64,000 nt of DNA from Armatimonadota bacterium (GTDB lineage Bacteria > Armatimonadota > SYMT01). Each line of letters starts with the position of its first letter. Positions within the stretch are counted from its first letter, which is position 1. Positions 10,771 to 41,406 of the stretch are shown here, piece after piece. The notes beneath the pieces are model-generated. The model saw only the letters and a list, made by a program, of their open reading frames with translations, was not told where the DNA came from and did not search any database. The stretch is from contig JAWLHY010000003.1 in NCBI GenBank assembly GCA_041690135.1, forward strand, positions 416,001 to 480,000, written 5' to 3'. A program made the translations under genes and the position numbers.

Positions 10771-11154
10771 ATGGCTCATCCCGATAACCTGCGCTACCGC
10801 GAAACGCACGAGTGGGTACGAGTAGACGGCGACCGCGCGACGGTCGGCATTACGGACCACGCCCAGCACGAGTTGGGGGACGTGGTTTACCTGGACCTGC
10901 CGCAGCCCGGCAAGACGTTCAGCCAGGGGGACGTTTTCGGCTCCATCGAGTCGGTCAAGGCCGTCTCCGACCTCTACGCCCCGGTCTCCGGCGAAGTCGT
11001 GGAGGTGAACGACGCCCTGATCTCCGCGCCGGAAGGGGTCAACAGCTCCCCGCACGACGCGGGCTGGATGATCGTACTGCGCCTGAGCAATCCTTCGGAA
11101 GTCGATTCGCTCATGGACGTGCAGGCGTATGAAGCCACTTTCGGCGGCCACTGA
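10771..11154 (+). CDS. gcvH: Glycine cleavage system H protein
   Basis: HEWVR; VGITDHAQHELGDVVY; IESVKAVSDLYAPVSG (lipoyl-Lys); GWM. Confidence 0.95.
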   Translation: MAHPDNLRYRETHEWVRVDGDRATVGITDHAQHELGDVVYLDLPQPGKTFSQGDVFGSIESVKAVSDLYAPVSGEVVEVNDALISAPEGVNSSPHDAGWMIVLRLSNPSEVDSLMDVQAYEATFGGH

Positions 11155-11944
11155 TCCCGCCGTGCAGGCCCTGCAGGGACGGCTGACCGGCCGTCCCTGG
11201 CAGGTGCTGCGAACCGGTCCCGCCGACGGGGCCACCAACATGGCGCGCGACCTCGAGCTGCTCGAAGCGGCAGCGGCGGAGCGCCTCCCACCTACCCTGC
11301 GGTTCTACACCTGGTCGCCGCCCGCGGTCTCGCTGGGGCGGTTCCAGCCGGAAGAGGGGATCGATCGCGACTATCGCGCCGCCCGCGGCTGGGACCTCGT
11401 CCGGCGTCCCACGGGCGGGCGGGCCGTGCTGCACCACCTGGAGCTCACTTACAGCCTTGTCCTACCTCCTTCGCTGGTAGCGGGAGCGGGAGTGCGCACC
11501 AGCTACGCCGTGCTGAGCCGAGGTCTCAACGCTGGTCTCGCCACCCTCCTGGGCCGGATCCCGTGTCCCAACGAGGCCGGCGCCTGCGACGTTCCCGTAA
11601 GTACCCAGAAGATCTCCGGCAGTTGCACTGCCGAAGAAACGTTCGTGCGCAGTTGCACTGCGCCTAAAGGCATTACCAACTGCTTCGCCCTGGCCAGCGA
11701 GTGCGACACCCTCGTCCCCGGCGGAAAGCTGGTGGGCAGCGCGCAGGTCCGCCATCACGGGGCGCTGCTCCAGCACGGTAGCATCCTGCTCGACGCCGAG
11801 CCCGAGGCCTGGACTGCCCTTTTCGGTACCGCCGGCCGCCTCGTCACCCTGCGGGAATTGCTGGGTGCGGTTCCCGCCCAGGAGGTGGTGGAACGGGCTG
11901 TTGTCGCAGGTTTCCGGTCGTTGGGCATTCCCTTGGAAAGCTGA
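11129..11944 (+). CDS. Lipoate-protein ligase / octanoyltransferase (LipM-like, BPL/LPL catalytic domain only)
   Basis: NMARD; LRFYTW; VRRPTGGRAVLH; CF; KLVGSAQ; LQHGSI; overlaps gcvH. Confidence 0.85.
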   Translation: MKPLSAATDPAVQALQGRLTGRPWQVLRTGPADGATNMARDLELLEAAAAERLPPTLRFYTWSPPAVSLGRFQPEEGIDRDYRAARGWDLVRRPTGGRAVLHHLELTYSLVLPPSLVAGAGVRTSYAVLSRGLNAGLATLLGRIPCPNEAGACDVPVSTQKISGSCTAEETFVRSCTAPKGITNCFALASECDTLVPGGKLVGSAQVRHHGALLQHGSILLDAEPEAWTALFGTAGRLVTLRELLGAVPAQEVVERAVVAGFRSLGIPLES

Positions 11945-12263: not shown

Positions 12264-12506
12264 ATGAAGTGGCTTCTCTCCGGCCTGGTGCTCCTCGTCG
12301 CGGTGGTGCATCAGGACACCTGGTTCTGGACCGACAAGACCCTGGTCTTCGGCTTCCTACCGATCGGGCTGGTTTACCATCTCGGCTACTGCCTGCTGGC
12401 GGCGGCCACGATGGCGGTGCTGGTCAAGTGGGCCTGGCCCAGCGAGCTGGAAGCGGTCGAGAGCATGCACGCCGGCGCCGCTGCCGGGGGTGAGAACCGC
12501 TCATGA
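12264..12506 (+). CDS. Small membrane protein accompanying an SSS symporter (DUF3311-like)
   Basis: 80 aa, two TM helices, HQD.WFW...VFGFLP.GL.YH; ATGA overlap with the symporter. Confidence 0.75.
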
Positions 12507-14089
12507 TCCCCGCGCTGATCGTTTTCGGCTACCTTGCGGTCGTCCTCTATATCGGCGTCTTCGCGTTCCGCAAGGGAAAGGAATCCGGCGAGGACTTCTT
12601 CCTCGCCAGCCGCGCGCTGGGTCCGGTGGTGTTCCTGCTCTCCCTGTTCGGCACGAACATGACCGCCTTCGCCATCCTCGGCAGCTCCGGTCTCTCCTAC
12701 CGGATCGGGATCGGCGTGTTCGGGCTGATGGCCTCTTCCTCCGCCCTGGTCATCCCGCTTTGCCTATTCTTCATCGGTACCCGCCTCTGGGGCCTGGGGA
12801 AGCGGTTCGGGCACATGACACAGGTCCAGTTCCTGCGCGACCGCTGGGAGTGCGGCGGCATCGGGACCTATCTCTTCGCCATCACCGCCGCGATGCTGGT
12901 GCCGTACATCATCATCGGCGTGATGGGAGGCGGCCAGACCCTGCAGACGATCAGCGCCTACACGGGTCCGGACGGGCAGGTGCGGCACTGGGTGAGCTAC
13001 GAGGCCGGCGGCGCCGTGGTGGCCCTGGTGGTGATGGGCTACGTCTTCTTCGGTGGGATGCGGGGCACCGCCTGGGTGAACACGTTCCAGACCGCCCTCT
13101 TCCTCTGCTTCGGCACGATCGCCTTCCTCCTGATCGCGAAGAACCTGGGCGGGCTCGACGGGATCATGGAAGGGCTGAAGGCGAACCCGAAATCGGCCAC
13201 GCTCTTGAGCCGCGAGAAGATCCCGCCGCGCGAGTTCTTGAGCTACATGTTCATCCCGCTCTCCTCCATCATGTTTCCGCACGTCGCGATCATGTGCATG
13301 ACGGCCGAGAAGGTGAGCCACTTCAAGAAGACCATCATCTTCTACCCGCTCTGCATCGCCGCCATCTGGCTGCCCTCCGTCTTCCTCGGCGTGGTGGGGG
13401 CCGCGCAGTTTCCCGGTCTTCAACCTGGCCAGACGGACAGCATCATCATCCGGCTGCTCACCCAGAACACCGGGGTATTGATCTCCGGAATCCTGGGTGC
13501 GGGGATCATGGCGTGCGTGATGGCTTCGGACAGCCAGATCCTGGCGCTCTGCACCATGTTCACCGAGGACTGCTTCGCCTATTACGGCGGGAAGGAGCGC
13601 TTCGGGGACAAGGCACAGGTCTGGACCGGGCGCATTTTCATCGTGCTGGTGACGACGCTGGCCTACTTGATCGCGCTCTCCCTGAAGGACAAGGCGGGCA
13701 TCTTCGGGCTGGCTATCCGCTTCGCCTTCTCCGGGTTCGCGGCCCTCGCGCCGATCATGCTGGCGGCGCTCTTCTGGAAGCGGAGCACCAAGTGGGGCGC
13801 GCTGGCGGCGGCCCTATGGGTGACGGCCACGGTACTGGGGAGCTGGTACCTCTACGAGATGTCCGCCGGCATCAAGCCGGCGCCGGGATCGGCCCCGGTC
13901 CAGATCTTCCCCGCGCTCGGCGACCTCTTCCTGCGGACCCCCGCCGACGTTACCGTCTACGGTTACCTGCCGGTGATGCCGATGTGCATCGGCTCGGCCC
14001 TCCTGATGGTTGTGGTCTCCCTGGTTACCCCGCCCCCCAGCCAGAAGACCCTCGACAAGTACTTCCCTCCCAAGTCATCGCTCGCTTGA
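12503..14089 (+). CDS. Sodium:solute symporter (SSS) family protein
   Basis: About 13 TM helices; EDFFLASR; [10 protein letters not shown]; MAS.DSQ Na-site motif. Confidence 0.9.
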
Positions 14090-14108
14090 TGCATTTCGAC
14101 CGGATTCT

Positions 14109-14280
14109 TTTCGACACGGAGGGACACAGATGATACAGAAGAACACAGAAGAAGAGGCAGCCGGATGAGTGGATGCATAGCCGCGGCCCTCGCTGCGGTG
14201 AAGGCGCCGTGATTGCCGGAATGACACCGGCCGATGCCTTCTGTGTCCTTCCGTGATCTCTGTGTCCCTCCGTGTCAAAA
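14109..14280. repeat. 172-bp element with 43-bp imperfect terminal inverted repeats built from ~10-bp subunits
   Basis: Left TTTCGACACGGAGGGACACAGATGATACAGAAGAACACAGAAG (14109-14151); right arm reverse-complemented TTTTGACACGGAGGGACACAGAGATCACGGAAGGACACAGAAG (14238-14280). Confidence 0.88.
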
Positions 14281-14326
14281 GTGGCTCCCATTCGTGTCGA
14301 AGGCGCTACCTGAGTAAGTTAAAGGC

Positions 14327-15409
14327 ATGTCGAACACTGAACTGAACGAGGCCGCGCGAGCCGCGGCGGATAAGCTGGACGCGCACGTGCGCGAGATCGT
14401 GCAGTGGCACTTCTCTCTGGAGACGGGGTGCCCCTTCTGGCTGAACTGGGCGCAGAAGGCGGGGTGGAACCCGGCCGAAGAGGTGAAGGGGGTGGAGGAC
14501 CTGAAGAAGTTCCCCCACTTCCAGGACGAGTGGCTCCGCGACGAGCAGAATGACGTGTGGGTCCCCCAGGCCTACCGGGGTCGCCCGTATTACATCTTCG
14601 AGACCGGCGGCACCACCGGCATGCCCAAGCAGCGGATCGGCTGGGAAGACCACTTCAAGGACTACGAAGAGTTCTCCGAGACGCTCGATGAGAAGTACTT
14701 CCCGAAAGGCGCCAACTGGCTGATGCTCGGCCCCACCGGTCCCCGGCGGCTCCGCCTCTGCATCGAGCACCTGGCCCACGTGCGCGGCGGCAACTGCTAC
14801 CACGTCGACCTCGACCCGCGCTGGGTGAAGCGCCTCATCGCCGACAAGCAGTTCGACCAGGCCAACAAGTACAAGGAGCACGTGGTCGAGCAGGGCGCCA
14901 CGATCCTCAAGAACCGCAACGTCCAGTGCCTCTTCACCACGCCGAAGCTGCTGGAAGCGCTCGACGAGAAGATCAACGTGCCGGACGCGGGTATCAAGGG
15001 CGTCTTCTGCGGCGGCACCCAGATGACCCCGCAGAACGTGCGCTTCCTGGTGGAAGAAGTGCTCGACAACCGCGCCCAGTTCGTGCCCACCTACGGCAAC
15101 ACCCTGATGGGCCTCGCCTGTAGCCGCCCCCTCACCCGCGAGGATAACTGGAGCATCACCTACTTCGCTCCGCAGCCGCGCGCCTACCTCCGCGTCGTGG
15201 ATCCCAACAACACCGACCGGACCGTGGACTACGGTGAATGGGGAAGGGTCGAGCTCTCCACCCTCACCCGCGAGTTCTTCATGCCGCGGTTCCTGGAACG
15301 CGACGAGGCCGTCCGCCGCGAGCCGTGGGCGCGCTTCCCGTGGGACGGCGTCGGTGAAGTCCGCCCGTTCGGTGCCCTGGAGAAGAAGACGATCGAAGGA
15401 GTCTACTAA
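14327..15409 (+). CDS. Truncated ANL-superfamily adenylate-forming protein (EhpF/LuxE-like, N-terminal domain only)
   Basis: P-loop FETGGTTGMPK; GGT; YGNT; GRV; ERDEA; only 360 aa, with no C-terminal ANL domain. Confidence 0.65.
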   Translation: MSNTELNEAARAAADKLDAHVREIVQWHFSLETGCPFWLNWAQKAGWNPAEEVKGVEDLKKFPHFQDEWLRDEQNDVWVPQAYRGRPYYIFETGGTTGMPKQRIGWEDHFKDYEEFSETLDEKYFPKGANWLMLGPTGPRRLRLCIEHLAHVRGGNCYHVDLDPRWVKRLIADKQFDQANKYKEHVVEQGATILKNRNVQCLFTTPKLLEALDEKINVPDAGIKGVFCGGTQMTPQNVRFLVEEVLDNRAQFVPTYGNTLMGLACSRPLTREDNWSITYFAPQPRAYLRVVDPNNTDRTVDYGEWGRVELSTLTREFFMPRFLERDEAVRREPWARFPWDGVGEVRPFGALEKKTIEGVY

Positions 15410-15461
15410 AGGCCTCTGCGAAATATTCGGTGGCGTTGCACTCGGGTAGGGTGAACGGACG

Positions 15462-15577
15462 CTCCCCTCTCTCGCAGATTCGGGAGAGGGATAGGGACTT
15501 GTGGGTTGGCCATAGCGCCTGCGGTGGCCAGTGTGACCTCACCCCCCCCGCCCCCTCTCCGACACAGAGAGGGGGAG
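15462..15577. repeat. REP-like inverted pair of CCCCTCTC...GAGAGGG hairpins
   Basis: CTCCCCTCTCTCG..GGGAGAGGG at 15462-15490 and CCTCACCCCC..CCCCTCTCC..GAGAGGGGGAG at 15537-15577, in inverted arrangement. Confidence 0.7.
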
Positions 15578-15761
15578 TCCGTGCACAAGACGGGGTGCCT
15601 CCTGCGCTTCTGACTACCGCTTTCGAGACTAGGTTGCCGTGAGTTAACACACATGGAGGCAGGGGTGAGCGCAACCGTGTGTGTGGAGTACGGGCTTTCG
15701 GGCAGTGCTGCCTCGTCCAACCGTTCTGGTTCCGCTGTCGGCTTTCACTAAGGATAGGGAG

Positions 15762-16010
15762 ATGGATTTCGATATCCACAGTGCACTGCCGCAATGGAAT
15801 GACTTCGAGGCGGCCGCTCGTGAACATGATGAGGATGCGAGGGCTCTCCTCAACGGCTACATCCGCGAGTGTCTGGAAGCCTGGGCGGAGTTAGACCTAC
15901 ATGCGGAGATCGCTCGTGATGTGCAGGTTACAGGCTATCAAGAGGATGATGCGGTCGAGCTAGTTCGGCGCATCCGAGCGGAGCGGAGGGGCCAAGGTGC
16001 CGTCTCCTGA
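15762..16010 (+). CDS. Small hypothetical protein, possibly an orphan antitoxin
   Basis: 82 aa, acidic and helical, with C-terminal GYQEDDAVELVRRIR; AGG/GGAG upstream; codon usage less GC3-biased than neighbours. Confidence 0.5.
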   Translation: MDFDIHSALPQWNDFEAAAREHDEDARALLNGYIRECLEAWAELDLHAEIARDVQVTGYQEDDAVELVRRIRAERRGQGAVS

Positions 16011-16039
16011 GAATCGGATTTCATACGAGGAGGCCCGTA

Positions 16040-17305
16040 ATGAGATGGATCGCTGTTAGTCTGGTGGCCGGCGGCATCGTGGCCGCCTTGCCGGCCCAGG
16101 CCCAGGAGTGGACCCGGTTCCGCGGCCCGAACGGCACGGGGATCAGCGCGGCCAAGGGCATTCCCGTGCAGTTCACGGAAGCGGACTTCAACTGGAAGGT
16201 CAAGCTCCCCGGCGCCGGGCATTCCTCGCCGGTGATCTGGGGGGACAAGGTCTTCATTACCAGTGCCGAGGAGGACCAGGGGAAGCAGCACCTCCTTTGC
16301 CTCCAAGCGTCGGACGGGAAGCAGCTCTGGTCGGTGACGCGGACCTTCGACAAGTACAACCGGCACAAGTTCAACAGCTACGCCTCGGCTACCGCCGCGG
16401 TGGATAAGGACCTGGTCTACGTCCCCTGGTACACGCCGGCGATGGCCAGCCTCATCGCCTACACCCACGACGGCAAAGAAGTCTGGAAGCGCGACCTGGG
16501 CCAGTGGCACGGACAGCATGGGGGGGCCGCCTCTCCGATCCTGTTCGAGAACCTGGTGATCATCCGCCAGGACTGCGACGACATGGGGCCCGAGTCGTTC
16601 GTTTTGGCCATGGATCGGAAGACGGGGCAAGAGAAGTGGCGCTGCCCACGCATTTCCAAGACGGCCTCCTACTCGACGCCGGTGCTGTTCAAGGGGAAGG
16701 ACGGCGCGTCGCAGCTGGTCTTCAACAGCAACGCGCACGGCTTTACGGGGGTCGATCCGCGGACCGGCAAGGTGCTCTGGGAGGTGCCGAACCTCTTCCA
16801 GCAGCGGTGTGTCAGCACCCCGGCGATTGCCGGTGATGCCGTGATCGGAACCGCCGGCAACGGCGGCGGCGCGCGGCAGGGGGTGGCCGTCCGCCCGGAC
16901 GCCGCGAAGGCCAAAGCGGCAGACGTGGTCGCCTACCAGCTTGACCGGCGCGTGACCCCTTACGTGCCGACCCCGCTGGTCTACGGAGAGCACGTCTTCC
17001 TGTGGGGCGACGGCGGAATCCTGAGCTGCGTGAAGGCGGCGAACGGGGAAACCGTCTGGTCGGAGCGGGTCGGCGGAAACTACTTCAGCTCGCCAGTCTG
17101 CATCGACGGTAAACTGTACGGGGTGAACTCGGCGGGAGAGGTCGTGGTGGTGGAAGCTGGTCCCCAGTTCAAACTGCTCGGCCGCAGCCCGCTCGGCGAT
17201 CCCTGTCACTCCACTCCCGCGGTCTCCGGGGGCGCGCTTTACGTACACACCGAGGGCCACCTCATCTCTATCGGCGGCAAGAAAAAAGTCGCCCAGAACC
17301 CGTAA
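16040..17305 (+). CDS. Exported PQQ-binding-like beta-propeller protein (BamB-like repeats)
   Basis: Signal peptide; W..FRGPNG.G; repeated SSPV..G and G...W blades; GAGGAGG Shine-Dalgarno. Confidence 0.85.
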   Translation: MRWIAVSLVAGGIVAALPAQAQEWTRFRGPNGTGISAAKGIPVQFTEADFNWKVKLPGAGHSSPVIWGDKVFITSAEEDQGKQHLLCLQASDGKQLWSVTRTFDKYNRHKFNSYASATAAVDKDLVYVPWYTPAMASLIAYTHDGKEVWKRDLGQWHGQHGGAASPILFENLVIIRQDCDDMGPESFVLAMDRKTGQEKWRCPRISKTASYSTPVLFKGKDGASQLVFNSNAHGFTGVDPRTGKVLWEVPNLFQQRCVSTPAIAGDAVIGTAGNGGGARQGVAVRPDAAKAKAADVVAYQLDRRVTPYVPTPLVYGEHVFLWGDGGILSCVKAANGETVWSERVGGNYFSSPVCIDGKLYGVNSAGEVVVVEAGPQFKLLGRSPLGDPCHSTPAVSGGALYVHTEGHLISIGGKKKVAQNP

Positions 17306-17319
17306 CAGCAGTACATCAG

Positions 17320-18738
17320 ATGTCGTTGCCTCACATTCCCGTCCTGCGCCGCGGCCAGGTATACGAAAGTCTCGACCAGGTCGAGCTCAAGAGCGTCCGC
17401 ACCGGCGAGCCGGTGGCGAGCGTGGGCCAGGCTAACGCCGGCCTCATCCGTCGTGACCTCCGCCGGCAGTCCCGCGATGCCTACCGGGGCTACTCGGTCA
17501 ACGATCTCCTGGGGATCTGTGATCGTGCCGGCCGCCTTTTCATGGAAGCCGAGCTGCCCCTGGGCAATGGGTCCCAGACCCCGGAGCAGTATATCGAGTC
17601 GCTCTCGGCGACCAGCGGCCTGCCGTATGCCCTTTGCCGCCGCAACATGGGGAAGATCCACCAGGTCTTCACCGAGATGCCGCTGATCCTCAAGGGCCTC
17701 ACCCGCGGCATGGACCCTAGCGTGATCGACCAGGGGACGGGCGAGCAGAACGGCGTACCGGTGAGCTACTACGCCACCACGGAATCGCTGGGGGTGGTCC
17801 TGCCCAGCAACTCTCCGGGCGTGAACTCCCTCTGGATGCCGGCGATCCCGCTCAAGGTGCCGGTGGTGCTGAAGCCGGGCCGCGAAGAGCCCTGGACGCC
17901 GTTCCGGATCATCCAGGCGTTCATCGCCGCGGGTGCTCCCGCCGAAGCCTTCAGCTTCTACGGGACAGACCATGAGGGCAGCGGCGCCGTGATGGACGCC
18001 TGCAAGCGGGCGCTGATCTTCGGCGATGAGAGCACCGTCCAGCGTTACGCGGGCAATCCCGGCGTGTCGGTTCACGGCCCCGGTCGCAGCAAGATCCTGA
18101 TCGGGAACGACGAGATCGAGCGGTGGCCGGAGTATGTCGGCCTGATCGCGGATTCCATCGCCCTCAACGGTGGCCGGAGCTGCGTCAACGCCTCCGCCGT
18201 GGTCGTGCCGAAGTACGCCGACGAGATCGCCGATGCTGTGGCCCGCAAGCTGGCCGAGTTGAAGCCGGTCTCCTACACCGACGAGACGGCGGTCCTCTCC
18301 GGGTTCGCCAACCCGAAGATGGCGGAGTACATCGATGCCGCCATCGAACAGGATCTGGACGGTGCGGAGGAGGTGACGGCGAAGTACCGGTCCGGCTCCC
18401 GCAAGGTGCTGCTGGACGGCTGCACCTACCTGCAGCCGACGCTGGTCCGGTGTCCCTCCTTCGAACACCCGCTTGCGAACAAGGAGTTCCTGTTCCCGTA
18501 CGCGAGCGTAGTGGAGGTGCCCCAGGAGCGGATGCTGGAACTGATCGGTCCGTCGCTGGTCGTCAGCGGGATCACCAGGGATCCGGAGTTCATCGAAGCG
18601 TTGATCGCCTCGCCGCTGATCGACCGGTTGAACCTCGGGCCGGTGCCCACTCCCGCCGTGCAGTGGGACCAGCCGCATGAGGGAAACCTCTTCGAATTCC
18701 TCTACCGCCGCCGCGCCATCCATCGCGCCAACTGGTAG
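17320..18738 (+). CDS. Aldehyde dehydrogenase-fold protein (acylating/reductive EhpG/LuxC-like type)
   Basis: PSNSP; VLKP; HGPGRSK in place of ELGGKS; NGGRSC with catalytic Cys; EFLFP. Confidence 0.8.
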   Translation: MSLPHIPVLRRGQVYESLDQVELKSVRTGEPVASVGQANAGLIRRDLRRQSRDAYRGYSVNDLLGICDRAGRLFMEAELPLGNGSQTPEQYIESLSATSGLPYALCRRNMGKIHQVFTEMPLILKGLTRGMDPSVIDQGTGEQNGVPVSYYATTESLGVVLPSNSPGVNSLWMPAIPLKVPVVLKPGREEPWTPFRIIQAFIAAGAPAEAFSFYGTDHEGSGAVMDACKRALIFGDESTVQRYAGNPGVSVHGPGRSKILIGNDEIERWPEYVGLIADSIALNGGRSCVNASAVVVPKYADEIADAVARKLAELKPVSYTDETAVLSGFANPKMAEYIDAAIEQDLDGAEEVTAKYRSGSRKVLLDGCTYLQPTLVRCPSFEHPLANKEFLFPYASVVEVPQERMLELIGPSLVVSGITRDPEFIEALIASPLIDRLNLGPVPTPAVQWDQPHEGNLFEFLYRRRAIHRANW

Positions 18739-18771
18739 AAGGCAACGGGGCCAGGGGCCTCGCGGATCTCG

Positions 18772-18925
18772 CTTAGTGCCGGGGGCGGCGAACGCCGCTG
18801 CAGTTGGGCGAGTGAACTCGCGGCTACAAACAGCGACTGCCCGGAGGGCGCCCGCCTCCGTCGGCTGGGGACCCTACAGCGGTTATACTTTGACGGCTCC
18901 TTAGTGCCGGGGGCGGCGAAGGCCG
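18772..18925. repeat. 21-bp perfect direct repeats enclosing a REP-like sequence
   Basis: CTTAGTGCCGGGGGCGGCGAA at 18772-18792 and 18900-18920; the interior GGCGAGTGAACTCGCGGCTACAAAC resembles 32278-32302. Confidence 0.8.
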
Positions 18926-18964
18926 TCCCCGTTCTCTGAATACAGTGGTAGCAGCGTTTTGTTG

Positions 18965-20131
18965 ATGATCGGATTCGACTACCAGCCCCGGACCCGACTG
19001 ATCTTCGGCGCCAACTCGGTAGACAGGCTGGGCGAGTTGGCCCGAGAGCTCCCTTCCCGCCGGGTGCTGGTGGTCACCGACCCCGGCATCGCGGCGGCCG
19101 GACATCTCGACCGGGCCCGCCGCGCGCTCGAAGGCGCCGGCCTGGAGGTCGTCGTGTACGACCAGGTGCGGGAGAACCCGACCACCCTGGACGTGGACCG
19201 CTGCCTGGAGGTAGCGCGTGCGGCCGACATCGACGGCATCATCGGCTTCGGGGGCGGCAGCAGCATCGATACCGCCAAGGGCTGTAACTTCCTGCTGACC
19301 AACGGCGGGAGGATGCGGGACTACTGGGGCGTGGGCAAGGCCCCGCACCCCATGCTGCCGCTGATCGCCGTGCCCACCACTTCCGGTACCGGCAGCGAAT
19401 GCCAGTCGTTCGCCCTGATCGCGGACGAGGAGACCCACCAGAAGATGGCCTGCGGCGACCCGAAAGCAGCCGCGCGGGTCGCTCTCCTCGACCCCACCCT
19501 GACGCTTTCCCAGCCGCGCGCCGTAACCGCCTGCACCGGCATCGATGCCATCGCGCACGCGGTCGAGACCGCCGTGACGAAGAAGCGGAATGAACTTTCC
19601 CTGCTCTACTCGCGGGAGGCGTTCCGGCTGACGATCCAAAACTTCACGCGCGTCCTCGAGGCGCCGGACAACCTGGAAGCGCGCTCCGCCATGCTCCTCG
19701 GCGCAGCCTATGCCGGCACCGCCATCGAGAACAGCATGCTGGGCGCGGCCCACTCTGCCGCCAACCCGCTGACCGCCCACTACGGCATCATCCACGGCCA
19801 GGCGGTGGGGATGATGCTCCCGCACGTGGTCCGCTTCAATGCGGCCGAATCGCCCGCCCGCGAGCTGTACCAGGAACTCGCCCTGGCCGCCGGCCTCATA
19901 GCATCGACCGCCCCCCTGGGATCGGGCGCGGAAGCCATCGCGCGGAAACTCGAAGAACTCCTTGCCGCCGCGGGAATGCCCCTCTCGCCCTCCGGTCATG
20001 GCATGACGCCCGCTGCGGTGACGGATCTCGCGCCCGAGGCCGCCGCCCAGTGGACCGCCACCTTCAATCCCCGCCCCATCACCGCGCCCGACTTCGAGCG
20101 CCTCTACGCGTCCGCCCTGGCCGCCGGCTAA
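18965..20131 (+). CDS. Iron-containing alcohol dehydrogenase
   Basis: GGGSSIDTAK; PTTSGTGSE; DAIAHAVE; GAAHS..NP; HG metal ligands. Confidence 0.92.
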   Translation: MIGFDYQPRTRLIFGANSVDRLGELARELPSRRVLVVTDPGIAAAGHLDRARRALEGAGLEVVVYDQVRENPTTLDVDRCLEVARAADIDGIIGFGGGSSIDTAKGCNFLLTNGGRMRDYWGVGKAPHPMLPLIAVPTTSGTGSECQSFALIADEETHQKMACGDPKAAARVALLDPTLTLSQPRAVTACTGIDAIAHAVETAVTKKRNELSLLYSREAFRLTIQNFTRVLEAPDNLEARSAMLLGAAYAGTAIENSMLGAAHSAANPLTAHYGIIHGQAVGMMLPHVVRFNAAESPARELYQELALAAGLIASTAPLGSGAEAIARKLEELLAAAGMPLSPSGHGMTPAAVTDLAPEAAAQWTATFNPRPITAPDFERLYASALAAG

Positions 20132-20426
20132 ACCCCCAATCCCCAACCCCGATCCATCTCCCAACGCAACCACAAAGAACCCTGGCACTTCGTGGGCGTC
20201 ATAAGAAGCGGGCTTTCCTCGCGGGCGACTGCATTTCCGGGTGCCTTCCCGCCTTCGATCTGCGTAGTAGTAAGGGGTGCCGGGTCTGAATTCTCGTTCG
20301 AACGACCTTTTACCCGTAAGAGATATCAGGAAGCAAGTGCGGCACTCGGAGCGGCGCCGAATGGGTAGGGCGGTCGCTCTTACCGCACCCCGCGCATCCC
20401 GTCGCTTCTCTGGCAGGAGATTCGTT

Positions 20427-21560
20427 ATGCCCGCTTACGTGCCACGAGATACCTGGAAGAGGTTCCTTCTCACCGGCCTGGCGCTGACGCTCGGGGCTTC
20501 GGCGGCCAGCGCGTCCTGGCCGACCTTCCGGGGCTCGGCCAAGCAGTTGGGGTTGGCGCCCGGCAAGCTCTCCAGCAGCTTCAAGCTGAACTGGAAGTAC
20601 AAGACGAGCGGCGCGCTGCTCTCCTCGCCGGTGGTTCATCGCAACCGGGCCTATATCGGCGCGGGTGATGGTCACGTCCATGCCGTGGACCTGGCGAACG
20701 GCAAGAGGGTGTGGGCCTACAAGACCGGCGCGGCCATCGAGGCGCCGCCGGCGGTAGTGTCCGGGCTCGTGGTGATCGGCTCGTCGGACGGCATCCTTTA
20801 CGGACTGGACGCTGCCACCGGAAAGCCGCGCTGGAAGTACAAGACGGAAGACAAGATCCTCGGCGCGGCCAATCCCGTCCCGGCGGCGAAGGGGAAGGGC
20901 TGGTGGGTCGTGGTGGGCAGCTACGACAACAAGGTCCACTGCGTCAACGCCGCCACGGGCAAGGCGGTGTGGACCTACACCACGGAGAACTATGTCAACG
21001 GCACCCCCGCCATCGATGCCGGCCGGGTCATCTTCGGCGGCTGCGATGGGATGCTCTACGTTTTGAACCTGGCCGATGGTAAGCTCCTGAAATCGATCGA
21101 GATCCAGGACTACATCGCCGGATCCGCCGCGGTGGACGGAAAGATGGTTTACCTGGGCCACTACGGCAACGAGTTCGTGGCGGCGGACGTGGCGGGCGGC
21201 AAGGTGACCTGGAAGTACCGCGACCGCCAGTTCCCCTACTTCTCTTCCCCCGCGGTGACGGCCGACCGGATCGTGGTCGGCGGCCGGGACAAGCGGGTCC
21301 ACTGCATCGGCCGCGCGGACGGCAAGCCCCTGTGGGACTTCCGCACGCGGGGTAAAGTGGACAGCTCTCCGGTTATCTGTGATGCTAAAGTGGTGGTCGG
21401 CTCGGAAGATGGCCGGCTCTATGTCCTCAACCTGGCCGACGGGAAAGAGATCTGGTCCTACGATCTCGGCGCTCCCGTGATGAGCTCCCCCGCCGTGTCG
21501 GACGGCCGGGTAGTCATCGGCGCGAACGACGGCTACGTCTACGCCTTCACGGCCAAATGA
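20427..21560 (+). CDS. Exported PQQ-binding-like beta-propeller protein (8-bladed, BamB/AfsK-like)
   Basis: Signal peptide; W.TFRG; repeated SSP.V....V.VGS.DG..Y.L....GK..W blades; AGGAGA upstream of ATG 20427. Confidence 0.88.
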   Translation: MPAYVPRDTWKRFLLTGLALTLGASAASASWPTFRGSAKQLGLAPGKLSSSFKLNWKYKTSGALLSSPVVHRNRAYIGAGDGHVHAVDLANGKRVWAYKTGAAIEAPPAVVSGLVVIGSSDGILYGLDAATGKPRWKYKTEDKILGAANPVPAAKGKGWWVVVGSYDNKVHCVNAATGKAVWTYTTENYVNGTPAIDAGRVIFGGCDGMLYVLNLADGKLLKSIEIQDYIAGSAAVDGKMVYLGHYGNEFVAADVAGGKVTWKYRDRQFPYFSSPAVTADRIVVGGRDKRVHCIGRADGKPLWDFRTRGKVDSSPVICDAKVVVGSEDGRLYVLNLADGKEIWSYDLGAPVMSSPAVSDGRVVIGANDGYVYAFTAK

Positions 21561-21579
21561 TCCCCGGGAGTAATGATTG

Positions 21580-22914
21580 ATGGCTGGAACGGTCCAACTG
21601 GTACAGCTCGCGAATGAGAGCGAGACGAGGGCAGGCAACTACTTCGTCTCGAACTATCCCCCCTACTCGTTCTGGTCGCCGGATTACGTGGCCGACGCCG
21701 AAGCGGCCCTCAACCGCCCGCCGGCGCCCGGCACCCAGCTCGGGCTGTACATGCACATCCCGTTCTGCCGCCGCCGCTGCCACTTCTGCTACTTCCGGGT
21801 CTACACGGACAAGAACTCCTCGGAGATCCAGCGCTACCTGGACGCGGCCATCGCGGAGCTGGAGCTGTACGTCCGGAAGCCGTTCCTCGGTGGCCGGAAG
21901 CCCCATTTCATCTATTTCGGCGGGGGCACCCCCTCCTATCTCTCGGTCCGGCAGCTCACCTACCTCACGGACGGCATGAAGCGGCTGCTGCCCTGGGATG
22001 AGGCAGAGGAGATCGCCTTCGAGGCGGAGCCCGGCACCCTCACCGAGCCGAAGATGCGGGAGATCCGGAACCTGGGCATCACCCGTCTCAGCCTCGGGGT
22101 GGAGCACTTCGAGGACCGGATACTGAAGCTGAACGGCCGGGCGCACGATGCATCCGCCATCGACCGGGCCTACGGGTTCGCCCGCTCCATCGATTTCCCG
22201 CAGATCAACATCGACCTCATCGCGGGCATGATGGGCGACACCACCGAGGGGTGGCAGGCCTGCGTGCAGAAGACGATCGAGCTGGCTCCCGACAGCGTGA
22301 CCATCTACCAGATGGAGATCCCGTACAACACCACCATCTACCAGGAGATGAAGGCGCAGGGAGCCGAGATCGCGCCGGTGGCGACGTGGGGCACCAAGCG
22401 GGAGTGGGTGCGCTACGCCTTCGAGCAGCTCGAGAAGGCGGGTTACACCGTCACGAGCGCCTACACCGCCGTCAAGGACCCGGCCAGGACCAAGTTCATC
22501 TACCGCGACCAGCTCTGGACGGGGGCGGACCTCATCGGGTTGGGAGTGGCCTCCTTCTCCCACATCGGCGGCACCCACTACCAGAACCAGCACAACTGGG
22601 ACCCCTACATCGAGCGCTTGAGCGCGGGCCAGCTCCCGATCTACCGGGCGCTCACCCCCACGTCCGAAGAGCGGATGATCCGGGAGTTGCTGCTCCAGTT
22701 CAAGCTGGGTCACGTCAATGCCGGCTACTTCCGCGAGAAGTTCGGCGTGGAGCTCACCGACCGGTTCGTCGAAGCGCTGGGGCGCCTGCAAGAGTGGGGT
22801 TACCTGAGCATCGAGGGTGACGAGCTGCGGTTCAACCGCGACGGCCTGCTGCAAGCCGACCGCCTCATCCACGAATTCTTCCTGCCGCAGCACCGGGATA
22901 AGAGGTATGCCTGA
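21580..22914 (+). CDS. HemN-like (class C) radical SAM enzyme
   Basis: LYMHIPFCRRRCHFC (CxxxCxxC); YFGGGTPS; RLSLGV; NIDLIAG; LIGLGVAS; HemN-type C-terminal domain. Confidence 0.9.
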   Translation: MAGTVQLVQLANESETRAGNYFVSNYPPYSFWSPDYVADAEAALNRPPAPGTQLGLYMHIPFCRRRCHFCYFRVYTDKNSSEIQRYLDAAIAELELYVRKPFLGGRKPHFIYFGGGTPSYLSVRQLTYLTDGMKRLLPWDEAEEIAFEAEPGTLTEPKMREIRNLGITRLSLGVEHFEDRILKLNGRAHDASAIDRAYGFARSIDFPQINIDLIAGMMGDTTEGWQACVQKTIELAPDSVTIYQMEIPYNTTIYQEMKAQGAEIAPVATWGTKREWVRYAFEQLEKAGYTVTSAYTAVKDPARTKFIYRDQLWTGADLIGLGVASFSHIGGTHYQNQHNWDPYIERLSAGQLPIYRALTPTSEERMIRELLLQFKLGHVNAGYFREKFGVELTDRFVEALGRLQEWGYLSIEGDELRFNRDGLLQADRLIHEFFLPQHRDKRYA

Positions 22915-23566
22915 TCCGGGTTTGACCGGGCCACAGGGGCTGGGCGATGCCGTGGCCGGGGCGCGCCAGGCGGTGGAGAGTGGGGTCGTTTCCCGGCCCC
23001 CCTTCGATCCGCGCAGCGTGCCGATGGGGCTGGCCATCAGCGACCTGCTCTATCCGCTCGGCGAGTTCTACGCGGAAGCGGGACGTCCCCTGCCGCCGGT
23101 CGTGCAGGTGCCGGGGGAACAGGTGCCGGAGCCTTATCGCCAGCTCCTGGTGCACGCCAGCGACATGACGCCCACGCTGGAGCGGTTCCACGGCGACACG
23201 ATCCACCTGCGGCCGCTGCAGCGGCGCCTGGTGGACGACACCATGTGCCGGCAGGTAGTGCTGACACTGGATGAAAGCCTCCGGCCCGTGGAGTATGGCG
23301 CCATCGCCATCCACTGCCGGCACTTCCCGGAGGAAGCGCGCCAGTTGATCGTCGAGAGCCGCTGCCCGCTCGGCACAATCCTCAACCGTTACCGGATCCC
23401 GCACTTCAGCCGCCCGCGCGCCTTCTTCCGGGTCACCGCCGACGACTTCATGAACGAGGCGCTCGGCTTGACCGGCCGCCAGGAGCTCTACGGCCGCCGC
23501 AATGTTCTGCTCGCCCCTGGGGATGTTGTACTGGCCGACGTACTCGAAATACTCCCTCCCGGATAA
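22907..23566 (+). CDS. Chorismate pyruvate-lyase / UTRA-fold protein (UbiC/DUF98-like)
   Basis: LL.H..DMT..LE; RQVVL; PLG.IL; YGRR pattern of the chorismate-lyase fold. Start may be ATG 23024. Confidence 0.6.
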   Translation: MPDPGLTGPQGLGDAVAGARQAVESGVVSRPPFDPRSVPMGLAISDLLYPLGEFYAEAGRPLPPVVQVPGEQVPEPYRQLLVHASDMTPTLERFHGDTIHLRPLQRRLVDDTMCRQVVLTLDESLRPVEYGAIAIHCRHFPEEARQLIVESRCPLGTILNRYRIPHFSRPRAFFRVTADDFMNEALGLTGRQELYGRRNVLLAPGDVVLADVLEILPPG

Positions 23567-23667
23567 GCTGTGCGATAAGGTGCGACGGAATTGGCAAGCT
23601 TCACCGTAGGGCATGCAGGGAAACCAGATCTCCCGGTGTCGGTTCGAGAACGCTATGTTTTCTTTCG

Positions 23668-23714
23668 AGTCCGCGCAGGCGGACTTCGGTTAGTTAGCCG
23701 CGGGTTTTAACCCG
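23668..23714. repeat. REP-like palindrome
   Basis: AGTCCGC-GCAG-GCGGACT hairpin followed by TAGCCGCGGGTTTTAACCCG; related in inverse orientation to 32278-32325 and 18807-18866. Confidence 0.7.
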
Positions 23715-23724
23715 AGGACGGCCC

Positions 23725-25053
23725 ATGCGCATCATTCAACTGACTCCCGGCACCGGTAGCTTCTACTGCGGCACCTGCCTGCGCGACAACGCCCTGGTGA
23801 CGGAGCTGCGCCGCCGCGGGCACGATGCGATGATGGTGCCGCTCTACCTGCCGCCCACGCTGGATGAAGCGCCTGCCTCCGCGGAGAGTCCGCTTTTCTA
23901 CGGCGGGATCAACGTCTACCTCCAGCATAAGTCCGGCCTGTTCCGCAAGACGCCGCGGTGGGTGGACCGCCTGCTGGATGCGCCGGGCGTGCTGAAGAAG
24001 GCGGCCGGCCGCGCGGGGATGACGGCCGCGAGCGAGCTTGCCGACCTGACGCTCTCGACACTCCGCGGCGAAGAGGGGAACCAGCTCAAGGAGCTGGACC
24101 GCCTGGCCGAGTGGCTGGCGACAGAGGGCCGGCCGGACGTCGTCTGCCTCTCCAATATCCTCCTGATCGGGCTCGCGCGCCGGATCAAGCAGCTCACCGG
24201 GGCGCGCGTCCTCTGCACGCTCCAGGGCGAGGACTCGTTCATCGACAGCTTTCCGGAGCCGGACCGGCAGGCCTCCTGGGATCTCCTGGCCGAACGCGCG
24301 GCCGACGTCGACCTGTTCGTGGCCGTGAGCCACTACTATGCGGACGTGATGACCCGCCGCGCGCGCCTTCCCGCGGACCGGGTGCACGTGGTGTACAACG
24401 GGATCTCGCTGGACGGCTACAATCCGGCTCCGGCCCCGCCCGACCCGCCGGTGCTGGGCTACCTCTCCCGGATGTTCCACGCGAAGGGTCTGGGCACACT
24501 GGTGGAGGCCTACCTCCTGCTGCGGGCGAGTGGTCGCGTCCCGGGCCTCAAGCTGCGGGTCGCCGGCACGAAGCTTTCCGTGGACGACGCCTACCTCGGA
24601 ATGCTGCGGGCGCGCCTGGCGGAGAAAGGGGCGGAAGGGGACGTGGAGTTCCTGCCCAATATCAGCCGGGAGGAGAAGATCGACTTCCTGCGCGGCCTTT
24701 CCGTCCTCTCCGTGCCGACCACCTACGGCGAGTCGTTCGGCCTTTACCTGGTCGAGGCGTGGGCCGCGGGGGTGCCGGTCGTGCAGCCGCGCCACGCCGC
24801 TTTCCCCGAACTCCTGGAAGCCACCGGTGGGGGATTGCTTTGCGAGCCGGACGACGCGCAGTCGCTGGCGACTTGCCTCGAACAGGTGCTCACCGACCCC
24901 AGGCGGGCACGCGAGATGGGCCTCCGAGCCCGTCGGGTCGTCGAGGAGCGCTTCAGCGTTCAGGCCATGGCCGAGGGCGTGGAACGCGTCCTCACCGGCC
25001 CCCCCTCTGAGGCGCCGCTGTTTGCAGAGCCCGTCACTGCCATGCGAGAATAG
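23725..25053 (+). CDS. Glycosyltransferase family 4 (GT-B) with N-terminal CxxC
   Basis: VVYNG; R....KG; ESFGLYLVEAWAAGVPVV (Ex7E); N-terminal FYCGTCLRDN. Confidence 0.88.
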   Translation: MRIIQLTPGTGSFYCGTCLRDNALVTELRRRGHDAMMVPLYLPPTLDEAPASAESPLFYGGINVYLQHKSGLFRKTPRWVDRLLDAPGVLKKAAGRAGMTAASELADLTLSTLRGEEGNQLKELDRLAEWLATEGRPDVVCLSNILLIGLARRIKQLTGARVLCTLQGEDSFIDSFPEPDRQASWDLLAERAADVDLFVAVSHYYADVMTRRARLPADRVHVVYNGISLDGYNPAPAPPDPPVLGYLSRMFHAKGLGTLVEAYLLLRASGRVPGLKLRVAGTKLSVDDAYLGMLRARLAEKGAEGDVEFLPNISREEKIDFLRGLSVLSVPTTYGESFGLYLVEAWAAGVPVVQPRHAAFPELLEATGGGLLCEPDDAQSLATCLEQVLTDPRRAREMGLRARRVVEERFSVQAMAEGVERVLTGPPSEAPLFAEPVTAMRE

Positions 25054-25070
25054 GCCAAGAGGTCATCAAG

Positions 25071-25319
25071 ATGGAAGTAATCGAGGACTCCAGAGCCCAG
25101 GAAGTCTACGAGCGGCACGTGCGCACGCTCAGCCCCACCGCGCAACTGCGCCTGATGGCTTTAACGGCTCAGGGCCTGGCGGAGAGTGAGGGCGGAGAGG
25201 CACCCCCGCGCCGGAGTATCATGGAGCTTTGCGGTTTAGGATCCGAAATCTGGCGCGGCGTTGATGCTCAACAGTACGTGAACGAGCTTCGAAGCGAGTG
25301 GGACGACCAGCCGCAATGA
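25071..25319 (+). CDS. Putative type II antitoxin
   Basis: RSIMEL.GLG.EIW.GVDAQ.YV..LR.EW tail typical of PIN-associated antitoxins; ATGA overlap with the toxin. Confidence 0.7.
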   Translation: MEVIEDSRAQEVYERHVRTLSPTAQLRLMALTAQGLAESEGGEAPPRRSIMELCGLGSEIWRGVDAQQYVNELRSEWDDQPQ

Positions 25320-25762
25320 AGGTCGATGAGGCGCTTCGCGGCGTGTCGAGAATAGCACTGGACACGGCGCCCGTCATCTACTTCATTGAGAGGCACCCAG
25401 CTTACATTACACGGGTCACCGAGGTGTTTCAAGAGATCGATCGGGGGCACCTGGAAGGGTACACTTCTGCTGTCAGCCTGTGCGAGGTTCTGGTTCACCC
25501 GATCCGGCAGGGCAATAACACCCTGGCCCACACCTACCAGGAATTACTCCTCGGCAGTGCAAATTTCGTAACCGCCCCCATTGACTCCCGGGTCGCCGCC
25601 AAAGGTGCTGAACTGCGGGGGCGTTACAACCTACGCACGCCGGACGCCTTACAGATCGCCGTAGCCCTAGAGTTCGGGTGCCAGGCGTTTCTAACGAATG
25701 ACACCGGTTTCCGCAGGGTGGATGACCTAAGGGTGTTGGTGTTGGATGACTTGCAGGTGTAG
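25316..25762 (+). CDS. vapC: PIN-domain (VapC-like) toxin
   Basis: LDT..VIYF; S...L.E; LRTPDALQIA; FLTND acidic PIN residues. Confidence 0.85.
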   Translation: MKVDEALRGVSRIALDTAPVIYFIERHPAYITRVTEVFQEIDRGHLEGYTSAVSLCEVLVHPIRQGNNTLAHTYQELLLGSANFVTAPIDSRVAAKGAELRGRYNLRTPDALQIAVALEFGCQAFLTNDTGFRRVDDLRVLVLDDLQV

Positions 25763-25807
25763 TGGATAACTACCAGAACAACCCCTTATCGAGCGCCAAC
25801 CATCGAA

Positions 25808-28115: not shown

Positions 28116-28154
28116 CGACCGGTGCGAGACCCCGAAGGAAACAGGAAAACGATC

Positions 28155-32188: not shown

Positions 32189-32277
32189 TCGCCCCAATGC
32201 GGAGCGCCATCCTCGCAGGAGGATGGCGCTCCTGGGCGATCTGGAATTCGGATTCCGGGCAGGTTCAACTGCGGCTC

Positions 32278-32325
32278 GGCGAGTAAACTCACGCCTACAA
32301 ACTGCGAAGCCTGCCTTCGCAGGCT
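32278..32325. repeat. REP-like palindrome
   Basis: GGCGAGTAAACTCACGCCTACAAAC followed by the AGCCTGC-CTTC-GCAGGCT hairpin. Confidence 0.7.
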
Positions 32326-32464
32326 AGTCGCGGCAGGCGATAATCAGATCTCCCCTTCACGATTTCTTAGAAATCCCCGCGTATTCTATGGACGTGAAGA
32401 CCGGAGCGAGATTTCCCGCCCCGGTCCGGAACCCATCCCAATCACGATCCACAGGAGTTACGAT

Positions 32465-41393: not shown

Positions 41394-41406
41394 AGCGAGG
41401 GACGCC

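Follow-up and report, generated by a model that had tools for sequence, protein, structure and literature searches.

What do three neighboring genes of an Armatimonadota bacterium, whose products resemble an acid-activating enzyme, an aldehyde dehydrogenase (ALDH), and an iron-dependent alcohol dehydrogenase (Fe-ADH), do together, and on which acid do they act? The genes lie in a 64,000-nt stretch of DNA (65% G+C), referred to here as the window, from a 9.1-Mb genome that is 97% complete. An earlier note on this DNA had read positions 14327-20131 as a split carboxylic acid reductase, composed of an EhpF-like adenylating protein, an ALDH-fold protein lacking the usual Glu, and an Fe-ADH that completes the reduction of a non-phenazine acid to the alcohol. 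The three core open reading frames (ORFs) are real, with G+C at third codon positions of 0.88-0.91:

14327-15409, + strand: EhpF/GriC-type truncated ANL adenylating enzyme, P0001, the putative acid-activating half (match to EhpF in the PDB, E 1.6e-47)
17320-18738, + strand: EhpG/GriD-type ALDH-fold protein, P0002, the putative reducing half (27% identity to Pantoea EhpG)
18959-20131, + strand: group III iron alcohol dehydrogenase, P0003 (Pfam Fe-ADH and ADH_Fe_C)

We propose, with a probability of about 0.6, that this trio is the ATP- and NAD(P)H-dependent reductase core of an approximately 15-gene system that converts a 4-hydroxybenzoate-type acid into an exported, modified alcohol. Homology, synteny, co-occurrence, the pattern of active-site residues, and a complex model run with controls form its basis; the reaction direction, the substrate, the product, and the order in which the later steps occur are what we infer from them. 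As an enzyme type, the pair is known: it falls within the EhpF/EhpG and GriC/GriD two-component aryl-carboxylate reductases. The non-phenazine split reductase of the earlier note is thereby supported, but as a type already established through GriC/GriD. What is new is the conserved context of about 15 genes, an obligate link to a symporter, a hidden gene for a chorismate-lyase-like protein, and an invariant His in the ALDH-fold partner.

P0001 (360 aa) carries the phosphate loop ETGGTTGMPK at residues 92-101 (window 14600-14629). It matches only the distal part of Pfam AMP-binding, and a Pfam search found no AMP-binding_C domain in it. Residues 15-360 align on residues 18-366 of the 366-residue chain of crystallized Pantoea EhpF (phmmer against PDB 3l2k/3hgu, E 1.6e-47), and the two proteins share the C-terminal ending IEGVY. 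The Pfam result and this full-length alignment bear out the earlier description of an adenylation protein devoid of the C-terminal ANL domain. Identity to the Pantoea protein, a plasmid-encoded AMP-binding protein, is 31% (E 3e-52), whereas orthologues in two phyla are 64-84% identical. Full-length Streptomyces homologues, several of which bear the RefSeq name “arylcarboxylate reductase”, are 33-35% identical. The family is represented among 1.84 billion entries by 1441 representatives at E <= 0.001, 901 at E <= 1e-10, and 238 at E <= 1e-30. The term “arylcarboxylate reductase” does not occur in the literature searched, in which EhpF and EhpG appear only in genome annotations, alongside structural work on EhpR. 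An 824-aa fused protein (P0053), considered as a possible ALDH-EhpF fusion, turned out to carry a class-III aminotransferase in its N-terminal part.

P0002 (472 aa) is a divergent member of the ALDH superfamily (Pfam Aldedh, 47 bits; cut-off 23), and its best solved relative is the ALDH KauB (E 6.5e-9). In the KauB alignment, HGPGRSK (residues 252-258, window 18073-18093) falls on E-A-G-G-K-S, placing His252 on the Glu; NGGRSC (residues 283-288, window 18166-18183) falls on the catalytic-Cys motif; and SNSPG falls on PWNFP. P0002 is 27% identical to Pantoea EhpG over residues 47-465 (E 2e-35). Both proteins carry GPGRSK, the Cys, and a C-terminal PH(D/E)G..EFL motif; at the site where P0002 has VHGPGRSKILIG, Pantoea EhpG has VQGPGRSKVVIG, a segment that includes VQGPGRSK. 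Because EhpG itself carries GPGRSK, the “Glu-less” signature is a trait of the EhpG family. The oxyanion residue Asn164, K185-P-G-R-E (185-189), His252, and Cys288 are invariant among 19 P0002 orthologues. The general-base Glu is absent from 19/19 of them and is replaced by His; EhpG has Gln at this position and a haloarchaeal homologue has Tyr. The Arg of K-P-G-R (185-188) hints, by ALDH numbering only, at use of NADPH. A monomer model of P0002 has the ALDH fold according to Foldseek (E ~1e-13). The KauB alignment, Pfam Aldedh, and the 19 orthologues together confirm that P0002 is the Cys-keeping, HGPGRSK-bearing protein of ALDH fold noticed earlier, and the full-length homology of P0001 and P0002 to EhpF and EhpG upholds the pairing with those enzymes. 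Passages of a 2025 ALDH review (PMC12041015) state that ALDH-fold enzymes losing this Glu protect the thioester from hydrolysis, and that in gamma-glutamyl-phosphate reductases, which likewise reduce a mixed anhydride, His replaces the same Glu; a term search of the text of that review returned neither GriD nor EhpG.

The two proteins are predicted to bind one another. A model of the P0001-P0002 complex, for which the input was one 19-row alignment per protein, gave an interface score (ipSAE) of 0.70, whereas the best of three controls gave 0.00; complex modeling, a check that the earlier note had proposed, thus passes its controls. The 0.70 mark is reached by 116/157 solved complexes and by 2/215 mismatched pairs, figures that are approximate here given the custom alignments. 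The runs have at least 72% of contacts in common, and the predicted local distance difference test (pLDDT) score of the partner is at least 86. In the modeled interface, residues 210-245 and 274-275 of P0001 pack against an N-terminal arm of P0002 (residues 17-48), which is disordered in the monomer model (pLDDT ~25). The model supports binding between P0001 and P0002.

Gene linkage agrees with this pairing. A scan of 185,579 species genomes yielded 27 loci with a P0001 relative, to which the locus counts below refer. The EhpG-like gene lies <=3 kb downstream of the EhpF-like gene in 20/23 loci with room for it, and in all five of the non-adjacent or contig-end cases an EhpG-like gene occurs elsewhere in the genome (64-72% identity). 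For one RefSeq “arylcarboxylate reductase” homologue, encoded on a Streptomyces angustmyceticus plasmid, the 6 kb around the gene contain no ALDH gene. An Fe-ADH gene follows the EhpG-like gene in 16 of 17 loci with room. P0003 is above the Pfam cut-offs for both Fe-ADH (176.6 bits) and ADH_Fe_C (112.7 bits), as expected from the earlier assignment of 18959-20131, and contains GGGSSID at residues 98-104. Its best NCBIfam match is ErcA, at 280 bits under a cut-off of 550 bits; because no NCBIfam equivalog attains its cut-off, NCBIfam assigns P0003 no substrate. EhpF-like domains also exist fused to Zn-ADH or to class-III aminotransferase, and these fusions fit an aldehyde that is handed onward, supporting the role proposed for the Fe-ADH. 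Given the homology, the linkage, the complex model, and the absence of a phenazine operon described next, the reading of P0001, P0002, and the Fe-ADH as an acid-reducing set is supported, and we consider a reductase role for the P0001/P0002 pair very probable.

A phenazine pathway was not found. A search of the 9.1-Mb genome with the PhzA/B family PF03284 gave no match, although the control genomes were silent too. When the Pantoea proteins PhzA/B, D, E, F, and G served as tblastn queries against the genome, neither PhzA/B nor PhzG was recovered, and PhzD was represented by nothing more than a 68-residue fragment. The same search gave two PhzE-like matches, of the anthranilate-synthase family, and one PhzF-family match, all on other contigs and none near the window. 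The genome-wide check for phzA-G that the earlier note had suggested thus yields no phz operon by either search.

Which acid, then, is reduced? In the cases examined, relatives of the pair are found next to genes for the synthesis of chorismate-derived aromatic acids. On the Pantoea plasmid, phzA/B-D-E-F-G are followed by the AMP-binding protein and then by the ALDH family protein. A Streptomyces goshikiensis family member adjoins 3-deoxy-D-arabino-heptulosonate 7-phosphate (DAHP) synthase and PabB, and one from Burkholderia ubonensis adjoins PhzD/PhzE-like genes. A member on a Streptomyces angustmyceticus plasmid (L030, 4823-11044) lies among MqnD-, MqnE-, MqnC-, and MqnA-like genes, including one for 1,4-dihydroxy-6-naphthoate synthase, with no ALDH-like gene within 6 kb; this locus may be a naphthoate-derived natural-product cluster. 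The equivalent gene in the window encodes a protein of chorismate-lyase fold, which points to 4-hydroxybenzoate:

23024-23566, + strand: chorismate-lyase-fold protein (UbiC/Rv2949c-like), candidate source of 4-hydroxybenzoate (structure model and Foldseek)

The ORF was listed as 22817-23566, and an alignment of orthologues sets the start at Met70, window position 23024. An AlphaFold2 model made with eight sequences has a pLDDT of 93.9. The best Foldseek match of this model is the DUF98 protein AF1396 (2nwi; E 2e-7, TM score 0.74-0.78); E. coli chorismate lyase (1jd3/1g1b/1fw9) follows at E 2-4e-4, ranked behind GntR/HutC effector domains. In a MAFFT alignment with E. coli UbiC, LLVHxxDMTxTLE falls on LLLEDSMTKRFEQ, PLGxIL on PLGRYL, and LYGRRN on LWGRRS. 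In the same alignment, in which the sequences are distant, two invariant residues are likewise paired: the Arg in R(Q/E)VVL with that in REILL, and the Glu in EILPP with that in TELFLP. We take the Arg and Glu of these UbiC motifs to be product-binding and catalytic residues. Among the Atlas neighbors of the lyase-like protein, 11-19% of members carry PF01947 or PF04345. The gene is found in 9 of 11 EhpF-positive relatives and in none of 50 EhpF-negative relatives, a set of 61 that spans three families and in which kin are not independent. It is also found in 2/5 further carrier genomes. Taken together, these observations make a 4-hydroxybenzoate-type substrate a tentative assignment, worth naming at somewhat less than even odds.

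In Opitutaceae clusters, a flavin halogenase-like gene with WFWNIP (L028, 16995-18266; CmlS 198 bits, below cut-off) lies between the lyase-like and glycosyltransferase genes, which suggests ring-modified variants. Homologues of it that are 42-44% identical are present in the host genome at C13:17329-18540 and C3:308917-310110.

The trio is embedded in a much larger conserved unit. From 12264 to 32188, every convincing gene is on the + strand, and in addition to the core trio and the lyase-like gene this segment contains:

12264-12506, + strand: small DUF3311 membrane protein, symporter companion (Pfam DUF3311 E 1.1e-6, 29 bits, just below the 30-bit cut-off)
12503-14089, + strand: sodium:solute symporter (SSF), probable carboxylate importer (Pfam SSF 133 bits)
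16040-17305, + strand: PQQ1, a secreted beta-propeller of PQQ_2 type and a variable member (Pfam PQQ_2 86.9 bits)
20427-21560, + strand: PQQ2, the conserved secreted beta-propeller (Beta-prop_ACSF4 307 bits, cut-off 133; PQQ_2 201 bits)
21577-22914, + strand: HemN-like radical SAM enzyme (Pfam Radical_SAM and HemN_C; CxxxCxxC and GGGTP motifs)
23725-25053, + strand: GT4 glycosyltransferase (Pfam Glycos_transf_1 90 bits, Glyco_transf_4; no NCBIfam model at cut-off)
25071-25762, + strand: small ORF and PIN-domain protein (VapBC-like), an insertion outside the system (PIN 62.5 bits)
25808-26263, + strand: 4HBT-fold, YbgC-like thioesterase (Pfam 4HBT_2 and 4HBT; NCBIfam YbgC/FadM 61.9 bits, cut-off 68.7)
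26290-26823, + strand: half-size DMT/EamA-like membrane permease (60-64% identity across phyla; no Pfam match)
26820-28115, + strand: PaaK-like aryl/acyl adenylate-forming ligase with its own C-terminal domain (Pfam AMP-binding and AMP-binding_C_2)
28122-28871, + strand: ATP-binding cassette (ABC) ATPase of LolD/MacB type (ABC_tran; LolD 268 bits, cut-off 308)
28868-32188, + strand: duplicated FtsX/MacB-type permease of 1106 aa, presumed exporter (two FtsX copies, MacB_PCD; weak ADOP-family match)

The closest named families for several of these proteins remain below their cut-offs. The top NCBIfam matches of the symporter are PutP, PanF, and MctP, all far under cut-off. The radical SAM enzyme, whose orthologues are 54-78% identical, scores 169-180 bits against hemN, HutW, STM4012, and HemW, all under the cut-offs, and the PaaK-like ligase scores 200 bits against PaaK, 125 against FlxY, and 99.5 against the ester-forming BagE/FevW, likewise below. 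The nearest Atlas clusters of the DMT-like permease are named DMT permease, and EamA is found on 22-27% of more distant clusters. The N-terminus of PQQ1 is signal-peptide-like, judged by eye from the translation; in PQQ2 a signal-like N-terminus follows residue 51 of the ORF, and the start was set at the Met that precedes it.

According to their labels, the 27 loci comprise Armatimonadota (77-84% identity); Opitutaceae, Opitutales, and Verrucomicrobiota (64-67%); one from Actinomycetes; and two without a phylum. The host genome belongs to the same family as one Armatimonadota carrier, a metagenome-assembled genome. The symporter gene lies directly upstream of the EhpF-like gene in 25/25 loci with upstream sequence, and a DUF3311 homologue precedes the symporter in 16/27. 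PQQ2 orthologues occur in 15 of the 27 loci, and PQQ1 stands between the reductase genes in 6 of them. Radical SAM and GT4 genes occur together in nine loci, with the lyase-like gene between them in full in seven and in part in one, and the placement of GT4 after the lyase-like gene is conserved. Thioesterase and DMT genes are found in eight loci. Downstream, genes for the thioesterase, DMT permease, PaaK-like ligase, ABC ATPase, and duplicated FtsX permease succeed one another in a conserved order; in the window and two Opitutaceae genomes this block is contiguous, whereas it forms a separate locus in one Armatimonadota genome. The VapBC-like pair is found in this genome only, and in related loci the thioesterase gene directly follows GT4. 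Overall, the system is unbroken in the window and in Opitutaceae, is split after GT4 in one Armatimonadota genome, and is split after PQQ2 in two others, where a second locus starts with radical SAM, lyase-like, and GT4 genes. Because about 13 conserved genes are split at different points in different genomes, we read them as one functional system. A system of about 15 genes, with the reductase trio as its core, is thus conserved in Armatimonadota and Opitutales; the core at 14327-20131 proposed earlier stands, but the conserved unit is far larger. The distribution of the EhpF-like gene is patchy: it occurs in 11/61 relatives, the host genome included, and in 3/151 sampled genomes of the phylum of the Opitutaceae genome.

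Several further features of the region were recorded. An Rfam scan of 11000-33000 (E <= 1) found no riboswitch that would name a ligand and returned only two weak CRISPR-DR28-like hairpins. These GC-rich hairpins (23667-23690 and 32303-32326; 25.7 and 29.6 bits, below the 35-bit gathering score) sit just past the lyase-like gene and the FtsX permease gene, and similar ones occur at five other places in the genome. A promoter and terminator scan of 12400-32390 was uninformative, with one promoter-like site (1.7 expected) and nine terminator-like sites (10.2 expected). For the 630-bp spacer at 15410-16039, comparison with related loci yielded no conserved match, either as coding sequence or as DNA. 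The spacer contains a GC-rich palindromic element of ~60-75 nt (core ~15510-15600) with at least 13 further copies in the genome, probably an element like a repetitive extragenic palindrome (REP) or a miniature inverted-repeat transposable element (MITE). In a soil-metagenome contig that is ~91% alike, this spacer is exchanged for 767 other letters. Genes for a glycine-cleavage H protein and a lipoate-protein ligase lie upstream (10771-11944) and are not conserved beside the cluster in related loci. PSCyt2/PSD1 (DUF1549/DUF1553) and DUF1501 genes, usually regarded as planctomycete signatures, are present at 38754-42765 in this genome with Armatimonadota-labeled kin.

Four sequencing runs share a small part of the stretch (0.05-0.06 of sampled words). 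Two RNA libraries contain short contigs, ~96-99% alike, on the EhpF-like, PQQ1, EhpG-like, PQQ2, and radical SAM genes, and two of these contigs span the PQQ1/EhpG-like junction. RNA libraries may contain DNA, a two-gene contig is not equivalent to a single transcript, and uncovered parts carry no meaning; with these qualifications, the contigs are no more than a hint of expression in a close relative.

These results allow us to propose a sequence of steps for the system. The acid would originate from chorismate via the lyase-like protein or would be imported by the DUF3311/SSF symporter. P0001 would form the aryl-acyl adenylate, Cys288 of P0002 would accept the acyl group as a thioester, and hydride from NAD(P)H would then free the aldehyde. 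The thioester would escape hydrolysis because His252 stands in for the Glu. The Fe-ADH would turn the aldehyde into a benzylic alcohol, which would probably be glycosylated by GT4 or esterified by the PaaK-like ligase, with the thioesterase in a proofreading role. The product would exit through the DMT permease or the ABC/FtsX exporter into the compartment of the secreted beta-propellers. A succession of acid, alcohol, glycoside, and ABC export resembles the formation and export of heterocyst glycolipids, although this is an analogy only.

A number of observations weigh against this proposal. The reaction direction and the substrate rest, for this clade, on analogy, and functions for the radical SAM enzyme, ligase, thioesterase, GT4, and propellers are not accounted for. 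The monomer model of P0002 is only moderate (pLDDT 67.7), and the Fe-ADH gene is missing from one locus (L025). Because a LuxC-LuxE complex has been solved (7XC6; cited in the text of PMC12041015), the pass of the P0001-P0002 model may partly reflect likeness to that structure, although Pfam detects neither Lux family in the two proteins. The fold of the lyase-like protein is also used by GntR/HutC regulators to bind ligands. The lyase-like protein has no match in Pfam (E <= 0.1, three members) or in NCBIfam, and a search of its profile against PDB sequences was empty of meaning, with flagellin as the best match at E 0.77 and another at E 2.9. The hhalign comparison with E. coli UbiC is weak (E 0.0017, probability 15%). 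The gene was not found in 2 of the 11 EhpF-positive relatives, both 98-99% complete, or in the other 3 of the 5 further carrier genomes, and the ninth locus with radical SAM and GT4 genes, L017, lacks it and is otherwise complete. Finally, the tightest neighbor of the adenylating gene is an importer rather than the lyase-like gene; the acid actually used may therefore be a different one, taken up from outside.

This last point leads to the strongest competing explanation, in which the core is a scavenging module. The symporter would import an aromatic or aliphatic acid other than 4-hydroxybenzoate, the adenylating enzyme would trap it, and reduction to the alcohol would serve assimilation or detoxification, with the lyase-like, radical SAM, GT4, and ligase genes belonging to a separate neighboring pathway. 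The invariable adjacency of SSF and EhpF-like genes is the tightest link of all, and the DUF3311-SSF-adenylating order recalls E. coli acs-yjcH-actP, in which an ANL enzyme traps the acid imported by an SSF permease. Moreover, a bare triad of SSF, EhpF-like, and ALDH-like genes, without the other genes of the system and with an IclR neighbor, occurs on a haloarchaeal plasmid (Halalkalicoccus jeotgali NC_014299.1; L064, 5508-9566). Its proteins are homologous to those of the window in all three parts (SSF 29% identity, E 2e-44; EhpF-like 34%; ALDH-like 27%), and for this reason acid uptake is probably an old part of the function of the symporter-linked clade. The triad adjoins the IclR regulator gene and a gene of the short-chain dehydrogenase/reductase (SDR) type, and its EhpF-like protein is annotated as hypothetical. 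The two relatives without the lyase-like gene fit the same explanation and may depend on uptake. However, the lyase-like gene is confined to EhpF-positive relatives (9/9 genomes, against 0/50 EhpF-negative), and the radical SAM, lyase-like, and GT4 genes accompany one half of the system in some genomes and the other half in others, as expected of one system and not of two. An acid reduction that costs ATP and two reductants would also be unusual for catabolism. We therefore regard scavenging as unlikely, although it deserves consideration.

A second alternative concerns the propellers, which could be what the system serves rather than a mere accompaniment. The exported molecule, derived from 4-hydroxybenzoate, would serve periplasmic propellers of the pyrroloquinoline quinone (PQQ) family as a substitute redox cofactor, or as a carrier of a metal such as a lanthanide, for quinoprotein-type dehydrogenases; the symporter would then be a salvage route, and the ABC/FtsX pump and the small DMT permease a delivery route. 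In all arrangements observed, the system is bordered by secreted PQQ-type propellers, although PQQ_2 propellers are very common in these phyla and often non-enzymatic. In one Opitutaceae genome, a TonB receptor and a true PQQ alcohol dehydrogenase with a cytochrome c domain (634 bits) lie next to the system. At least five genes for full-length PQQ dehydrogenases are present in the host genome (375-660 bits to PF01011; e.g., C10:90899-92617, C2:994324-996081, and C11:115801-117474). This genome has no PqqE above cut-off and no PqqC, and PqqC is above cut-off in 0/5 other carrier genomes, but the PqqC search had no positive control. The host organism may rely on PQQ from outside or on something else; against any special meaning of this, many bacteria retain PQQ enzymes although they lack pqq genes. 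Methylotrophs have a lanthanide carrier that contains a 4-hydroxybenzoate moiety (PMC11317620), but no gene of the cluster resembles known cofactor or metallophore synthetases. On balance, a role in serving the propellers seems improbable.

Least likely of all, and very doubtful, is a pair that does not reduce, in which P0002 would transfer the acyl group after oxidizing an aldehyde, or P0001 would be an independent ester or amide ligase beside an ordinary dehydrogenase. In its favor, ALDH-fold enzymes can in principle run in both directions, the Cys and Asn are retained in P0002, and the RefSeq homologue mentioned above has no ALDH gene within 6 kb. Against it, the general-base Glu is lost from all 19 orthologues, from EhpG, and from the haloarchaeal homologue, EhpF-like and EhpG-like genes co-occur in all genomes checked, the complex model passes its controls, and the characterized relative GriC/GriD is cited as a reductase (PMC10179220).

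The proposed reductase core has several implications. Reductases of the EhpF/EhpG and GriC/GriD types are known from only a few antibiotic pathways, and the family is small; one of its clades is now seen to be firmly tied to its own Na+/solute symporter, both in bacteria and in a haloarchaeon. 4-Hydroxybenzoate is a concrete, testable guess at the substrate of an orphan pathway, in phyla whose specialized metabolism is almost uncharted. Acid reductases that work without a carrier are, in addition, attractive in practice as small biocatalysts for aldehydes and alcohols.

Among known systems, EhpF/EhpG from the D-alanylgriseoluteic acid cluster of Pantoea agglomerans is the closest. Both proteins are full-length homologues of P0001 and P0002, and their genes are adjacent and in the same order. 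EhpF ends at the same point as P0001, without an ANL C-terminal domain, and EhpG shares GPGRSK and the Cys with P0002. Bera et al. are said to have proposed in 2010 that EhpF/EhpG reduce phenazine-1,6-dicarboxylate through an adenylate, and in both clusters a later enzyme can reportedly take the aldehyde to the alcohol. The differences lie in identity (27-31%), in the phz genes that accompany ehp and were not found in this genome, and in the position of the lost Glu, at which EhpG has Gln whereas the P0002 clade has His. Unlike ehp, which is on an enterobacterial plasmid, the window pair is chromosomal in Armatimonadota and Opitutales and is coupled to the symporter, the chorismate-lyase-like protein, the radical SAM enzyme, GT4, and the ABC/FtsX exporter.

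GriC/GriD of the grixazone pathway in Streptomyces griseus is likewise a two-protein reductase, of AMP-binding and ALDH-like parts, acting on a non-phenazine aryl acid, a likeness drawn from description. A passage of PMC10179220, citing Suzuki 2007, describes adenylation and then reduction of 3-amino-4-hydroxybenzoate to the aldehyde. The aryl-acid synthase of griH/griI type is absent here, and the genomic context and taxa are different.

LuxE/LuxC, as portrayed in PMC12041015, has the same chemistry, the same two superfamilies, a Cys-only ALDH-fold reductase, and a tight complex. There, LuxE transfers the acyl group via a Cys near its C-terminus, whereas P0001, 360 residues long, has no Cys beyond residue 265. 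In addition, neither P0001 nor P0002 matches Pfam LuxE or LuxC at E <= 0.001, and the Lux substrates are fatty acids. The single-chain adenylation-thiolation-reduction (A-T-R) carboxylic acid reductases treated in the same source carry out the same net reaction of acid, ATP, and NADPH to aldehyde. They use carrier and SDR-type reductase domains, whereas the window system has separate proteins, no carrier, and a reductase of ALDH fold. ProA (ALDH18) shares with P0002 the ALDH fold, the reduction of a mixed anhydride via a Cys thioester, and, to judge from that review (PMC12041015), a His in place of the triad Glu. It has no specific sequence relation to P0002, and its acyl phosphate comes from a kinase, in contrast to the acyl adenylate that would come from a partner protein.

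The lyase-like protein resembles UbiC and Rv2949c/DUF98 in its fold, its motif pattern, and its stand-alone size of ~180 aa. It differs in lying below detection by both Pfam models, and its lyase activity is predicted. The carrier organisms are not known to make ubiquinone. Rv2949c provides p-hydroxybenzoate for glycosylated phenolics, in a pathway that also combines a lyase, an adenylating enzyme, and glycosyltransferases.

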